From: a virus
Reading direction: 5' to 3' (one strand)
Virus record (IMG/VR): IMGVR_UViG_3300035698_010358
Coordinates: 8,159 to 72,158 of that record
Length of the DNA stretch: 64,000 nucleotides
In this document: piece by piece, positions 10,530 through 14,309 of the stretch
Layout: every line of letters begins with the position of its first letter
Position numbering within the stretch: position 1 is the stretch's first letter
The notes under the pieces: generated by a model
What the model saw: the letters and a program-made list of their open reading frames with translations, nothing else
Databases searched by the model: none
Told to the model about the DNA's origin: nothing
Position numbers and translations under genes: made by a program

Positions 10530-11030
10530 ATGTCAGTTGCATTTGTTCCTGGAGAAACGATAGGGCGGGGGGATCTGGACATTTTCTTGCAGAGTGCTCA
10601 AGGTAACCCTGCAAATGCAGCAGAGATTTATTACACCCTCTATTACGTATCCCCCGGACCCCCCGAATCTGAAGTTCAGGTTGGACAACCCCAACGAATA
10701 CCAGTGAATCCAGCCGTCGGGGAGTATTATGCTTCTCTAATGGTTCCAGCAGGCTCAACCCCTGGGACGTATAGGATTCGGTGGACGTTCCGAGAATTGG
10801 TGAATTCTCCCCAGCAGCAAGTTGTTCAAGAATTTGCTGTTGTCACTGCAGCAGGGATAGCATTGGTTCCTGGATATGACCCGTATCAAACAGCAATGAT
10901 GAATAGTCTTAGAATGCTTCTCAGAGATCAGTGTGTTGGTGAGGAGGTGAAAGTCGAAGTAGATGCCGACGGGGAACTTCTGGTTGTGTCTATGAAGGAC
11001 TTATGGGAGGCTTTGAAAGATGAAGTCTAG
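10530..11030 (+). CDS. Fractured gene part 1: extein 1 (134 aa, Ig-like) plus 32-aa split-intein N fragment
   Basis: ...LLRDQ/CVGEEVKVEVDADGELLVVSMKDLWE: block-A-like Cys1 at 10932 and the typical SI/MxDL motif, then stop. Confidence 0.85.
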   Translation: MSVAFVPGETIGRGDLDIFLQSAQGNPANAAEIYYTLYYVSPGPPESEVQVGQPQRIPVNPAVGEYYASLMVPAGSTPGTYRIRWTFRELVNSPQQQVVQEFAVVTAAGIALVPGYDPYQTAMMNSLRMLLRDQCVGEEVKVEVDADGELLVVSMKDLWEALKDEV

Positions 11031-12319
11031 CCAACCACATGTAAAACTAGTACCCTTGTTAGAGAAATATAATATTTCTTGGGGTTTATTTTGTAAAAAA
11101 GGTCGTTTGCCTAATGACTTGAAGTGGGTAAAAGAGAAACGTGTGTTTATCATTACAGAATTACACTCTCAAGGCACCTCCTGGGCCAATATGGTATTTA
11201 TTACGGGTTTGTCTCAAGGTTCTATTCAGCGTTTAACTAAAGCTATGTGGAACCAAGCATCACGGGACAAATTGAATAAAATAGGTGAGAAGGTTGGGAA
11301 ATCATGGAAAGGTAAAAAACGTCTAGGGCAATTAGAAAAACAATGGAAAAATGGCGTTTTTGATTTTCATCGAGGACGGAAAAGACCGGAGTGGGAAAAA
11401 GAAAAATTACGTGCTTCATGGACACCTGAATTAAGGGCACAAGTATCGGAAGAACGGTTAAAACGGTGGCAAGACCCGGAATACCGAAAAAACCTTTTAG
11501 ATTACCACAGAAGTCCTGAAGTTAGGGCTGAGAGGTCTAAATTACAAACAGAACGGATACTGGCTGATCCTGTGAAATGGACAAAGGGTCGGGGTGCTTA
11601 TGTTGAGGCTCTAAAAGAAAAACGAGAGGTTGTGTGGACACGGAGTTCATATGAACGAAGAGCTCTCTTAGTATTAGATAGTGATCCTAATGTGGTTTCT
11701 TATGAGTATGAACCACGGATAGAGTTGTCTGATGGTTTTTGGATAGTTCCTGATTTTTTAGTGTTCTTTAAAGATGGGTCTCAAACTCTTTTAGAAATAA
11801 AAGCCTCTTGGGTATACGGTCTTCCAGAGGGCCATAAAATTCACATTAGATTAGAGAAATCTAAAAAGTTAGCTTGTGATAGAGGTTGGGGTTTTTCTAT
11901 ATGGACTGAGAAAGATAGGTTGGAAGATGTTAAGTGTGCATAACAAATTGGTTCAGGCTTTTCGTGCAGGGAAACTGAAAACCCGATCTGTATCCCCTGA
12001 AGGAAAATTGGAGTGGAAACCCATAACGGATGTTCATAGGGCTGAAGTTCCTTGGGAAGAGATTATACAGGTTGGCACAGATCAAGGACATACTTATCTG
12101 ACTAAAGGGCACAGGGTTTTTGTATCCCCTACTGCAAAACGGGAAACTGGGGATTTAATAAAAGGTGATGGGGTTCTAGGTGTAGATTTACAGGATAATG
12201 TATTTCATCCTGTAATAGTGTCTACAGATACTGTACCATCACGTAAATATATGTATGATATGACTGTTGCAGACTGGCATAATTTTGTTTTGTTCGATTC
12301 TCGGATTGTTATTAGTAAT
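10932..12319 (+). mobile_element. Split intein 1 (IntN 10932-11027; IntC 11927-12319) with intervening endonuclease gene
   Basis: IntC has block B LTKGH, block F MYDMTVADWHNF and terminal ISN followed by Cys+1 at 12320. Confidence 0.85.
11020..11943 (+). CDS. Free-standing putative homing endonuclease, TnsA-N-like PD-(D/E)XK domain with HTH/NUMOD3-like N-terminus
   Basis: RSSYERRA...YEYEP...VPDFLV...LLEIK; HRGRKRPEWEKEKLRAS NUMOD3-like; out of frame with both intein halves. Confidence 0.8.
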   Translation: MKSSQPHVKLVPLLEKYNISWGLFCKKGRLPNDLKWVKEKRVFIITELHSQGTSWANMVFITGLSQGSIQRLTKAMWNQASRDKLNKIGEKVGKSWKGKKRLGQLEKQWKNGVFDFHRGRKRPEWEKEKLRASWTPELRAQVSEERLKRWQDPEYRKNLLDYHRSPEVRAERSKLQTERILADPVKWTKGRGAYVEALKEKREVVWTRSSYERRALLVLDSDPNVVSYEYEPRIELSDGFWIVPDFLVFFKDGSQTLLEIKASWVYGLPEGHKIHIRLEKSKKLACDRGWGFSIWTEKDRLEDVKCA

Positions 12320-12691
12320 TGCCCTGATAAATTCTACCATTTCCGACCACCAGAGTATGAAGGTGACATTGGCCAATACAATCGAATATTCGGACAGATT
12401 TGGGAAGATGCTGAACTTCTGGAATATCTGTTGAGATCTTTGGATTGGTTCAACATGTTCCCTCCCCTGACACAGAAAATCAATACTCTCACACGTTTGG
12501 TTCAAGATATGCCCTCGTGGAGGACAGCGATCCTTTGGGGCGCAATTACCCATGCCTGTTTTGCACTTTCAATAAATTGGGTTGCTGACGAATTTTCTGT
12601 TAGGGGTGACCAGGAAGTGACCGTTATAACAAAAACAGGGAAAAAGGTTACGTTGTCTATTCAGGAGTTGTATGAAATATGCAAGGGATGA
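11927..12691 (+). CDS. Fractured gene part 2: IntC1 (131 aa) + extein 2 (92 aa) + IntN2 (31 aa)
   Basis: ATG at 11927; ...IVISN/CPDKFYHF...WVADEF/SVRGDQEVTVITKTGKKVTLSIQELYE. Confidence 0.85.
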   Translation: MLSVHNKLVQAFRAGKLKTRSVSPEGKLEWKPITDVHRAEVPWEEIIQVGTDQGHTYLTKGHRVFVSPTAKRETGDLIKGDGVLGVDLQDNVFHPVIVSTDTVPSRKYMYDMTVADWHNFVLFDSRIVISNCPDKFYHFRPPEYEGDIGQYNRIFGQIWEDAELLEYLLRSLDWFNMFPPLTQKINTLTRLVQDMPSWRTAILWGAITHACFALSINWVADEFSVRGDQEVTVITKTGKKVTLSIQELYEICKG

Positions 12692-14018
12692 TAACAAAAC
12701 GACAAATTTTGTTGAAATACGGGTTCAATGACAAGACTTTCCGAAAGATGATGTCCGAGGGGGTTGTCAGCCCTGATTATATTCAACAAGGTAAAAGAAA
12801 AACCTTATTTTTTAAAGAGGGCTCTTTGAGGTTTGTTGAAAACCTTCACTATGTTATTTGTTTAGAGTGTGGAAAATGGATGAGTCAGATCACCACGAAG
12901 CATTTAAAAAGCTGTAGTGGAATGGTATTGCAGGATTACAAGGAAAAGTACCCTAAAGTTCTATTGATCTGTTATAGGACTAATGGTAACCATGTAAAAA
13001 CAGAAGAACAAAAGCAAAGACAGTCAGATGTTTTAAAGGCACGTTTCCAAACGGAAGAAGGGCAGAAAACCCGAGAAGTTATTTGCCAAGCATCTATTCG
13101 TTTAATGAAAGGCCCGTATCGTAAACAAGCTGCAAAACACCTAAAGGATTTGAATCAGACTACCAAGATGAAGGAATTTCATCGGGGGCATACCAAGAAA
13201 AGATGGGAAGATGGCGGGGATCTTCGGTATCTTATCCCAAAATGGCATCTGGATAATAAGGATTATTCAAATCAATTGGCCGCAAATGCTCGTAGGTTTA
13301 TAAAGAAAATTTCAAAGCCGCACATTAGGTTAAAAGTTTTATTGGAAGCTGCTGGTATCCCAACAGTTACGGAATATGAAGTCGGTTACTATGCCATTGA
13401 TGAAGCAATTCCAGGGAAAAAGATATCCATTGAGATGCATGGTTGTTATTGGCATAGTTGTCCTGTTTGTGGGTTGGAAGGTCCTTCCCTGAATAAAAGG
13501 ATTGACAAGTCTAAAGCTACTTATCTGAAAAATAGGGGTTGGGAACTTGTAGTGATTTGGGAACATGAGTTGAAAAATAATCCTGAAATGTGTATTGATC
13601 GGGTGAAGGAGGTTGTAATAGGATGTTGACTGATGCTTTAAAAAGAGAGATTAAGGAATCCTTTGAAGAGGGTTCCCTGAAAGTCCTTAGCGTGAACCCA
13701 GATTCTTTAGAGCCCTCTTTAGAATCGGTTACTGATGTTATGAGGCATCTTACTCCTCATAAAACAATTTTGGATGTTGAGACCTCACAGGGGCATACTG
13801 TTACGACTGAAGATCACAGTTTGTTCATGGAGGATATGTCTACGGTACCAACTTCTGAGTTGCAGGTGGGGGGTTGTATTGCTTGTATTCAGAACGGGGT
13901 CTATCAACCGACCCCTATTCTGGGCATTTCGGAAACGTTGAGGGAACAATATACTTATGATTTATCTGTCCCTTCATTTGAGAATTTTGTCTTGTCCAAT
14001 GGAGTGGTTGCACATAAC
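12596..14018 (+). mobile_element. Split intein 2 (IntN 12596-12688; IntC 13623-14018), Ser1/Ser+1 type, with intervening endonuclease gene
   Basis: IntN starts SVRGDQEV; IntC has block B TTEDHSLF, block F TYDLSVPSFENF and block G VAHN followed by Ser at 14019. Confidence 0.88.
12679..13629 (+). CDS. Free-standing putative homing endonuclease, Vsr/DUF559-like, with Zn-finger and NUMOD3-like N-terminus
   Basis: IEMHGCYWHSCPVC...DKSKATYLKNRGWELVVIWEHE; CLECGK..HLKSC; alternative start at 12688 (ATGA overlap). Confidence 0.82.
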   Translation: MQGMITKRQILLKYGFNDKTFRKMMSEGVVSPDYIQQGKRKTLFFKEGSLRFVENLHYVICLECGKWMSQITTKHLKSCSGMVLQDYKEKYPKVLLICYRTNGNHVKTEEQKQRQSDVLKARFQTEEGQKTREVICQASIRLMKGPYRKQAAKHLKDLNQTTKMKEFHRGHTKKRWEDGGDLRYLIPKWHLDNKDYSNQLAANARRFIKKISKPHIRLKVLLEAAGIPTVTEYEVGYYAIDEAIPGKKISIEMHGCYWHSCPVCGLEGPSLNKRIDKSKATYLKNRGWELVVIWEHELKNNPEMCIDRVKEVVIGC

Positions 14019-14309
14019 TCATATAGCATAGGGGGAGTGTCCTTAGATATCGATAAATCTGCCAAATATGAGTCCTTAAAGCAGAATGCTGAGGGACAAC
14101 TGACTTTGGCCACCGAGGCCAAGCAACGGACAGTGAAATTCATTCGTGGGCTACAGCAGCCCAGATTCGGGATGGGTGTTAGGTCGAGTTTTGGCCCGTT
14201 TGTGGGGAAAGGTATACTTAGCCCTCGTAATTTCGTGGCTTGGGCTTCTGTTATATTAGTACCAGCTTTGATGTTTGTTAGTTCTGCTAACAGTTCAGGT
14301 TTGGTCTAG
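13623..14309 (+). CDS. Fractured gene part 3: IntC2 (132 aa) + extein 3 (96 aa); spliced product is a putative head-completion/adaptor protein
   Basis: ...NGVVAHN/SYSIGGVSLDIDK; rejoined junction DEF-SYSIGGVSL resembles the head-tail adaptor beta-hairpin (function inferred). Confidence 0.82.
   Translation: MLTDALKREIKESFEEGSLKVLSVNPDSLEPSLESVTDVMRHLTPHKTILDVETSQGHTVTTEDHSLFMEDMSTVPTSELQVGGCIACIQNGVYQPTPILGISETLREQYTYDLSVPSFENFVLSNGVVAHNSYSIGGVSLDIDKSAKYESLKQNAEGQLTLATEAKQRTVKFIRGLQQPRFGMGVRSSFGPFVGKGILSPRNFVAWASVILVPALMFVSSANSSGLV

Follow-up and report, generated by a model that had tools for sequence, protein, structure and literature searches.

A virus known from IMG/VR record IMGVR_UViG_3300035698_010358 probably builds a protein of 322 amino acids (aa) from three separately encoded polypeptides by two protein trans-splicing reactions, a reading to which sequence comparison leads us to give a probability of about 0.8. 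The gene lies at positions 10530-14309 of the window, by which we mean the whole stretch of 64,000 nucleotides (nt) analysed here (positions 8,159 to 72,158 of the record). It is made of five + strand open reading frames (ORFs), all of them open. Three carry segments of the host protein, or exteins (ExtA, ExtB and ExtC), joined to the N-terminal (IntN) or C-terminal (IntC) pieces of two inteins, and the other two are nuclease genes, in the order ExtA-IntN1 / TnsA-like nuclease / IntC1-ExtB-IntN2 / Vsr-like nuclease / IntC2-ExtC. This layout is confirmed as real and not due to chance, since the Pfam family Intein_splicing matches ORF5 and, below its cut-off, ORF3, and since the three exteins are found head to tail in a single ORF in nine of 13 related loci.

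Organization of the locus

The first ORF (10530-11030, 166 aa) contains ExtA, the N-terminal extein (10530-10931, 134 aa, ending in ..LLRDQ), followed by IntN1 (10932-11030, 32 aa and the stop), which begins with Cys1 and has a net charge of -7. The second ORF (11020-11943, 307 aa) is a free-standing gene for a TnsA-like endonuclease of the PD-(D/E)xK type with a putative DNA-binding part at its N-terminus; we call it HEG1, for homing endonuclease gene. The third ends at 12691 and is 271 aa long if started from the GTG at 11876, or 254 aa from the ATG at 11927. We take the ATG as its probable start because homologous IntC pieces all begin with ML(S/T). From this start it encodes IntC1 (11927-12319, 131 aa, with block B TKGH, block F YDMTV..HNF and the end ISN), the middle extein ExtB (12320-12595, 92 aa, CPDKFYHF...VADEF) and IntN2 (12596-12691, 31 aa and the stop), whose first residue is Ser1. 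The fourth ORF, HEG2 (12679-13629, 316 aa), is a free-standing gene for a Vsr-like homing endonuclease that includes a Ros/MucR-like zinc-finger segment. The fifth (13623-14309, 228 aa) contains IntC2 (13623-14018, 132 aa, with block B TEDH, block F YDLSVP..NF and the end AHN) and ExtC, the C-terminal extein (14019-14309, 96 aa and the stop, starting with SYSIGG). A first-pass annotation, made from the sequence alone, had proposed these seven intein and extein lengths and the junctions RDQ/C, ISN/CPD, DEF/S and AHN/SYS, and cutting the ORFs at those junctions reproduced all of them exactly.

Neighbouring ORFs overlap by 11, 17, 13 and 7 nt, and a non-coding spacer is absent. Promoter-like sites (11, against 11.5 in shuffled sequences) and terminator-like sites (3, against 4.2) are not in excess over chance. 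Together with the overlaps this fits a single transcript, so that the five ORFs are probably co-transcribed and translated separately.

Uninterrupted, contiguous and split alleles of the gene

Scanning IMG/VR with ExtB produced 13 loci (L003-L015), which were read by tblastn of the nine window parts and by stop-to-stop frames. In nine of them (L004-L012) the gene is uninterrupted, ExtA-ExtB-ExtC forming one ORF of about 299-341 aa. The exteins of L004 and L006 are 87-92% identical to those of the window: identity is 87-91% between ExtA and the N-terminal third of these two genes, and 91-95% between ExtB and its counterparts in L003, L004 and L006. When GenBank phages were searched by tblastn with the three exteins, gp319 of Tunturi_5, a jumbo phage of Tunturiibacter, was also found to be uninterrupted across both junctions. 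Contiguous homologues free of inteins, the absence of which would have spoken against the first-pass annotation, are thus available from both sources.

The two insertion sites, LLRDQ/NPDKFYHF and NWVADEF/DYSIGG, are among the most conserved motifs of the family and fall in invariant columns in the alignment of uninterrupted homologues (A1). Empty alleles read ..CAG AAC CCT.. (Asn) at site 1 and ..TTT GAT TAT.. (GAY, Asp) at site 2, whereas the +1 codons of occupied alleles are TGC/TGT (Cys) at site 1 and TCA/TCG (Ser) at site 2. The insertions are in frame: their removal restores the conserved host protein, as seen from the empty alleles of the nine uninterrupted loci, and the junction codons align.

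The remaining four loci are occupied in different ways. L014 has a 460-aa frame from stop to stop (450 aa from the ATG); its junction 1 contains a contiguous mini-intein of 154 aa, and its junction 2 is empty. In L013 junction 1 is split and holds a TnsA-like gene while junction 2 is empty, as in LR745208.1, a 485-kb uncultured phage from the GenBank search, which has contiguous ExtB and ExtC and an orthologue of the TnsA-like gene in its split junction 1. Both junctions are split in L015, where the Vsr-like gene is the sole nuclease gene present. Both are also split in L003, the closest relative of the window, which has neither nuclease gene.

The same states were found in a much larger protein collection. 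When 1.84 billion cluster representatives were searched by phmmer with ExtA, 289 matched at E<=1e-3; 150 of them were listed, and 60 of those reach junction 1. Among these 60 representatives junction 1 is empty in 35, holds a contiguous intein in seven, ends in a short IntN in eight and is unclear in 10. Junction 2 of the same proteins is empty in 20, contiguous in nine, split in five, unclear in three and unreadable in 23. One protein (P0067) has both inteins contiguous within one ORF, and in three others (P0010, P0022 and P0024) intein 1 is contiguous while intein 2 is split. The middle ORF of the window gave 273 matches at E<=1e-5, of which the best 120 were classified. The double-split signature IntC1-ExtB-IntN2 was present in at least 24 distinct protein clusters among these 120, which also included 59 IntC1-ExtB-ExtC pieces, and a pattern search saw both junction motifs in 21 of the 24 middle pieces. 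The window is one member of a recurrent arrangement and not a singleton. All of the anatomical elements described by the first-pass annotation were verified by these comparisons. The double split recurs in L003, in L015 and in the clusters just mentioned.

Two related inteins split at the same position

Pfam Intein_splicing (PF14890) matches ORF5 with 47.1 bits (E 2.8e-12; cut-off 35.8), and IntC2 alone matches the Pho RadA intein (E 2.6e-6). IntC1 and IntC2 are 30% identical to each other. The contiguous allele L014 matches positions 6-155 of the 155 profile positions (E 2e-7, below the cut-off) and the second intein of P0067 matches positions 7-155 (E 3.2e-15). At E<=0.01, a profile of eight IntC1, IntC2 and L014 intein sequences (A5) matched 43 solved chains, the top seven of them all inteins, headed by the Mja KlbA intein (1.8e-13) and followed by the CDC21-1, TFIIB, RadA and PI-PkoII inteins; the NrdJ-1, DnaE and gp41-1 inteins were among the lower-ranked matches. 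The alignment of this profile begins at about residue 30-55 of the solved inteins, as expected for IntC pieces lacking the first strands. The proposal that the IntN and IntC pieces belong to inteins thus withstood comparison with intein profiles, as the contiguous alleles match nearly the whole HINT profile and the A5 profile finds solved inteins.

MAFFT alignments showed split and contiguous alleles to be colinear at both sites. IntN1 is colinear with the first ~30 residues of five contiguous intein-1 alleles (L014, P0007, P0130, P0010 and P0067), and contiguous mini-inteins are colinear with IntN plus IntC at both sites (L014, P0007, P0019, P0067 and others). The break lies 30-35 residues from the intein N-terminus in every split allele. 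With IntN/IntC lengths of 32/131 aa for intein 1 and 31/132 aa for intein 2, both inteins of the window fall among the atypically split ones (IntN of ~15-37 aa, IntC above 100 aa).

Apart from the penultimate residue of intein 1, discussed below, the catalytic residues are kept in both. Intein 1 has Cys1, TxGH, YDxTV..HNF and the terminal Asn, followed by Cys+1; intein 2 has Ser1, TxDHSLF, YDLSVP..NF and AHN, followed by Ser+1. Cys1 (intein 1) or Ser1 (intein 2) is found in the window and in all eight split and 10 contiguous alleles aligned, and the Thr and His columns of block B are invariant in the eight-sequence alignment A5. Intein 2 begins with Ser in 24 of 24 middle pieces.

In a tree of 18 intein sequences, built without P0022 and without the contiguous alleles P0024, P0083, P0076, P0087 and P0125, site-1 and site-2 inteins are separate (100/99), and split and contiguous alleles are interspersed within each group. 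Two of the 15 inner branches are well supported, and no count of split events was drawn from this tree. No other intein was found in the 72-kb contig, and a search with IntC2 among longer proteins found one protein. In P0091 (409 aa), an IntC2-like segment (residues 261-382) follows ExtC residue 54, possibly marking a third insertion site in the family.

Ligation or non-covalent assembly

The three polypeptides might instead come together non-covalently at one or both junctions, with the intein halves acting as mere docking domains or with intein 1 being dead. We hold this to be unlikely, but several results weigh against splicing, mostly at the first junction. The penultimate residue, His in intein 2 of the window (AHN), is Ser in intein 1 (ISN). 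The match of Intein_splicing to ORF3 (20.7 bits, E 3.8e-4) is below the cut-off of 35.8, and IntC1 alone reaches solved inteins just at E 0.04. There is also a precedent for non-covalent assembly in the NrdA of phage Aeh1, split by a homing endonuclease gene (PMC3045599). Moreover, the IntN pieces are alike (IntN2 and the IntN1 of L015 share 52% identity over 25 residues), and cross-reaction between the two intein pairs is possible. The idea that a charge swap keeps the pairs orthogonal was upheld for intein 1, in which IntN1 is acidic (net charge -7 to -8) and the N-terminal 25 residues of IntC1 carry +2 to +4 in five of five alleles. It did not hold consistently for intein 2, both of the L015 pieces being negative.

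Docking alone, however, accounts poorly for what is conserved. Cys1 or Ser1, TxxH, the terminal Asn and the +1 Cys or Ser are all present in eight of eight aligned split alleles, and the terminal Asn and +1 Cys/Ser in 21 of 21 middle pieces. Of these 21 pieces, eight have Cys and 13 have Ser directly after intein 1, at the +1 position. Such +1 residues are exclusive to occupied alleles, empty ones having Asn or Asp, and docking would not need them. As for the unusual residue of intein 1, the same 21 pieces have Ser 13 times at the penultimate position, Lys three times, His twice and Gly, Phe and Gln once each, and Ser is present in three of five contiguous alleles, so that the penultimate Ser looks like a family trait. 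The contiguous proteins P0007, P0010 and P0067, which have this same Ser, can yield a functional protein only by splicing in cis. We therefore favour ligation at both junctions over mere docking.

Persistence of the three-piece state

The comparison with L003 bears on whether the three-piece gene works. L003 lacks what corresponds to window bases 11071-11890 and about 12712-13566, that is, the interiors of both nuclease genes. It keeps the first ~50 and last ~55-60 bases of these genes, and with them the IntN stops, ribosome-binding regions and IntC starts; all three of its ORFs are open. The nucleases are thus dispensable for the host gene, as L003 has deleted both and kept the gene in three pieces. 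Between the window and L003, the ratio of nonsynonymous to synonymous substitution rates (dN/dS) was 0.07 for IntN1, 0.27 for IntC1, 0.07 for IntN2, 0.05 for ExtA and 0.08 for ExtC. These ratios are rough, since synonymous divergence (dS) lies close to saturation or beyond it; for ExtB and IntC2 no dS value was obtained. Judged by these rough values, the intein pieces are under purifying selection.

A decaying, non-functional gene, its function being dispensable or provided by a second copy outside the sequenced fragment, would be very improbable. The genome of the window is a 72,158-bp fragment and the function of the host protein is unproven, which leaves some room for this idea. It is difficult to reconcile with five open ORFs whose catalytic motifs are intact, with dN/dS values of 0.05-0.27, with a three-piece state that outlasts the loss of both nuclease genes and with the existence of at least 24 clusters of middle pieces. 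Nor was a second copy of the gene found in a double-split genome: the record that holds L015 (296,642 bp, 95% complete according to CheckV) contains a single ExtB match. The persistence in L003, the low dN/dS, the lack of a back-up copy in the L015 record and the lack of an RNA intron match all suggest that the three-piece state is functional.

This last point concerns the idea that the nuclease genes lie inside self-splicing RNA introns and that RNA splicing restores the reading frame. Endonuclease-bearing group I introns do fragment many genes of huge phages, according to the passages compared of PMC12880540. However, no Rfam family matched positions 9500-15500 at E<=1, and thus no known self-splicing intron is present there. 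On either side of each nuclease gene the reading frame continues into one part of a HINT domain, N before it and C after it, and excision of the nuclease region alone would leave an intein that still needs protein splicing, as in L014. L003, which is without the nuclease genes, keeps the stops and restarts. RNA splicing is hence scarcely credible here.

Finally, a chimera assembled from several co-occurring alleles, which a metagenome with many related alleles could produce, can be dismissed almost entirely, because contigs of four public salt-lake DNA runs are identical to the window, letter for letter, across all six part boundaries and because independent records (L001, L013 and L015) have the same layout. 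One of the four runs may be the window's own source sample. Short contigs with zero differences cover, for example, 10635-11108, 12113-12537, 12541-12884, 13212-13681 and 13906-14060. In a contig of one run, 11941 is followed directly by 12024 and the 82 bases between them, where IntC1 starts, are missing, with 31 letters on the shorter side of the joint; it may come from a related allele.

The two nuclease genes

HEG1 matches Pfam PF08722 (Tn7_TnsA-like_N) with E 1.1e-3 and 20 bits, below the cut-off of 26.5. It has 97 homologues at E<=1e-3, many of them on contigs of 100-444 kb. When 27 of these homologues were aligned, 26 matched PF08722 (best E 2.3e-10) and the pattern E231...P-D245...E259-x-K261 was invariant. 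This supports the TnsA-like identity proposed by the first-pass annotation. No solved relative of HEG1 was found by sequence or profile. Orthologues occupy the same site in L001 and L013.

The Pfam matches of HEG2 are all below cut-off: MTES_1575 (3.4e-6, 27.5 bits against 38.2), ROS_MUCR (1.7e-5) and Vsr (9.5e-3, 16.2 bits against 27). HEG2 also matches phrog_3339, annotated as 'homing endonuclease' (2.9e-11). Among solved proteins its C-terminal domain weakly resembles 3r3p, the mobile-intron endonuclease I-Bth0305I (E 0.018), and then E. coli Vsr (E 0.26). Taken together, phrog_3339, 3r3p and the sub-cut-off Vsr and MTES_1575 matches point to a Vsr/I-Bth0305I-like nuclease. An orthologue is present at the same site in L015. 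Two unrelated nucleases would thus have broken two paralogous inteins at the same structural position.

Two further observations concern these genes. The family phrog_218, labelled 'head closure' in the connector category, matches HEG1 residues 199-298 (11614-11913) with E 4e-7; we speculate that this label may stem from nuclease genes that sit inside connector genes, as here. In L001 (643-2076, - strand) and L013 (4499-5824, + strand), in both of which junction 2 is empty, the gene is followed directly by a free-standing ORF of 442-477 aa, in which ..YG.ENP.. motifs are repeated and the C-terminus is Vsr-like (..EAFGD(F/W)WH..). Its similarity to HEG2 is weak, amounting in the L001 copy to 27% over 84 aa (E 0.008).

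The host protein and its neighbourhood

We give about an even chance to the host protein being a component of the neck or head-tail connector, a role suggested by matches to phrog_17327 and by a conserved gene order upstream of the tail terminator and sheath genes. At E<=0.5, 15 of the 26 uninterrupted proteins searched matched the family phrog_17327, 'head-tail connector protein' (the best with 2.4e-5, the first with E 0.34). Tunturi_5 gp319 has the label 'head-tail connector', which stems from the automatic Phold pipeline. It opens a block of genes on the same strand that continues with gp322 (minor tail), gp324 (tail terminator), gp326 (sheath), gp329 (virion protein), a protease and the major head protein. 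The window ORFs 18086, 25066, 26934 and 37785 match gp322, gp324, gp326 and gp329 in this order, with E values of 2e-30, 2e-10, 2e-41 and 3e-48. The third of them (26934-32252, + strand, 1772 aa) would be an unusually long sheath: its last ~360 residues match the sheath family phrog_2839 (7e-22), and it aligns to gp326 in three blocks. In phage G, gp165 (179 aa) is a homologue of ExtB-ExtC and lies ten genes upstream of the homologues of the same two tail genes.

A number of results speak against this role. The window's own pieces matched no connector PHROG at E<=0.1. Pfam matched none of five host proteins, four of them intein-free and the fifth, P0067, matching just Intein_splicing, and four proteins searched singly had no usable PHROG match. 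A profile of the host protein gave chance-level matches in the PDB, with no solved relative, and in the ESM Atlas it found unnamed viral clusters only. Phage G gp165 is unannotated, is without the N-terminal domain and stands beside replication genes. Of the head-completion or adaptor-like function claimed by the first-pass annotation, a connector role is what phrog_17327, the Phold label and the gene order point to, weakly, and it is not established.

The N-terminal domain of ~105 residues of the host protein (ExtA residues 1-107, 10530-10850) also occurs alone, in proteins of ~105-130 aa, and repeated up to 18 times in giant proteins such as P0065 (4922 aa, 18 matched stretches); P0044, P0056, P0145 and others likewise have it alone or repeated. 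It is possibly an immunoglobulin-like module. At the other end, the last ~23 residues of ExtC (14238-14306) form a variable hydrophobic tail, of 18-31 residues past ..SPRNF(I/V/L) in the window, L003, L005, L007 and L011. L004, L006, L008-L010 and L012 end at ..SPRNF(I/V/L) and have no such tail.

Elsewhere in the window, ten neighbouring ORFs up- and downstream of the gene gave no Pfam and no PHROG match, and two candidate head genes found nothing in the Atlas or the PDB. A 344-aa ORF at 21801-22835 (+ strand) of this salt-lake virus contig matches the whole profile of Pfam Volactin (PF25216, E 4.8e-70). Volactins are actin-like proteins whose name comes from a haloarchaeon, and the match may point to an archaeal host or to a cytoskeletal protein encoded by the virus. 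Other large ORFs are one of 589-590 aa at 32829-34601 (- strand) with a phage-integrase SAM-like N-domain (7.5e-6), one of 834 aa at 35125-37629 (+ strand) encoding a VIT+VWA protein, and one of more than 3351 aa at 53947-63999 (+ strand) that runs past the end of the window.

Comparison with known fractured genes and split inteins

In the passages compared of Dassa 2009 (PMC2677866), 26 fractured loci are described, each broken in two, with enzymes of DNA synthesis or repair and terminase as hosts. Their endonucleases are GIY-YIG or Vsr-like, the latter in half of the loci, and IntN has 88-105 aa, except for one terminase locus with a 122-aa IntC. A non-coding spacer of 27-51 nt with control elements precedes the endonuclease gene. 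The same passages propose a gene-breaking model and report a gp41-7 locus without endonuclease. The gene of the window is fractured twice in the sense of that work, except that overlaps of 7-17 nt replace the spacer. It resembles the loci described there in having a Vsr-like endonuclease, and L003 and L015 recall gp41-7. It differs in being broken in three by two inteins rather than in two, in its non-enzymatic, probably structural host, in its overlapping ORFs, in one nuclease being TnsA-like and in IntN pieces of 31-32 aa.

Atypically split natural inteins are described as rare; the passages compared of PMC11766414, PMC10189870 and PMC12707363 give AceL-TerL (IntN of 25 aa), GOS-TerL (37 aa) and PolB16 OarG (15 aa, with Ser1/Ser+1). 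Compared by description, these are like the inteins of the window in their short IntN (15-37 aa against 31-32 aa), in an IntC above 100 aa and in their metagenomic origin, and intein 2 of the window is Ser1/Ser+1 as PolB16 OarG is. Each of the three is described as single, in terminase or PolB, whereas the window has two in one gene and its family includes contiguous alleles, alleles split with a nuclease and alleles split without one for each intein. Tandem trans-splicing has been engineered: three segments are joined by two split inteins, which requires orthogonal pairs (PMC12707363, passages compared). The scheme we propose shares with it the three polypeptides and the two split inteins, one without a catalytic cysteine; it would be natural and, judging by the relatives, evolutionarily stable, with a putative orthogonality.

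As for the nucleases, the C-terminus of HEG2 aligns weakly to 3r3p of the I-Bth0305I/Vsr-like family (PMC3239194), and its N-terminal part adds the Ros/MucR-like zinc finger. HEG1 shares PF08722 and the E..PD..ExK pattern with TnsA of Tn7. Unlike TnsA, it lies outside any transposon, free-standing inside a split intein as a putative homing endonuclease.

Split inteins and intron-fragmented genes of jumbo phages are already known, as seen from the parts compared of PMC6892783 and PMC12880540. The first-pass annotation knew of no natural double split of this kind, and we found no natural gene that two split inteins divide into three pieces in the literature searched, the coverage of which is incomplete, so that a prior description is possible. 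The same literature yielded no intein in a connector or portal gene, and the passages compared describe no TnsA-like nuclease in a fractured gene. What is new here is the double split, the atypical position of both splits, the TnsA-like nuclease, the non-enzymatic host, the overlapping ORFs and the full series of intermediates at two sites. We lean, with some reserve, towards regarding the gene as the first natural case of tandem trans-splicing, in which two orthogonal, atypically split inteins, one Cys1/Cys+1 and the other a cysteine-free Ser1/Ser+1, build a virion neck protein and have been evolutionarily stable in dozens of huge-phage lineages.

Proposed mechanism and significance

In the mechanism that we propose, two related but distinct class-1 inteins would have invaded one phage gene at two conserved motifs. 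Each would later have been broken ~30 residues from its N-terminus by a free-standing homing endonuclease gene, TnsA-like for intein 1 and Vsr/I-Bth0305I-like for intein 2. The acidic Cys1 IntN1 would dock on IntC1, and ExtA would be ligated to ExtB via Cys+1; IntN2, with its Ser1, would dock on IntC2, and ExtB would be ligated to ExtC via Ser+1. The 322-aa product should differ from that of intein-free alleles just by Asn to Cys and Asp to Ser at the junctions. Homing by the nucleases would presumably have carried the elements into empty alleles.

The gene family contains every stage of the homing and gene-breaking cycle of Dassa at two sites: the empty site, the contiguous mini-intein, the intein split by a nuclease gene and the intein that remains split after loss of the nuclease. 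With all stages in one family, the model becomes directly testable. With this locus, fractured genes would no longer be confined to replication enzymes but would include a probable component of the virion, and the intein-breaking endonucleases would include one that is TnsA-like.

Protein engineering relies heavily on split inteins. A natural pair that must already work side by side in one cell is available from this locus and its relatives, together with dozens of variants. Gene callers read such loci as five unrelated small ORFs, hiding a conserved core gene of huge phages. If the proposed scheme is true, virion assembly in the double-split phages depends on two protein-splicing reactions.

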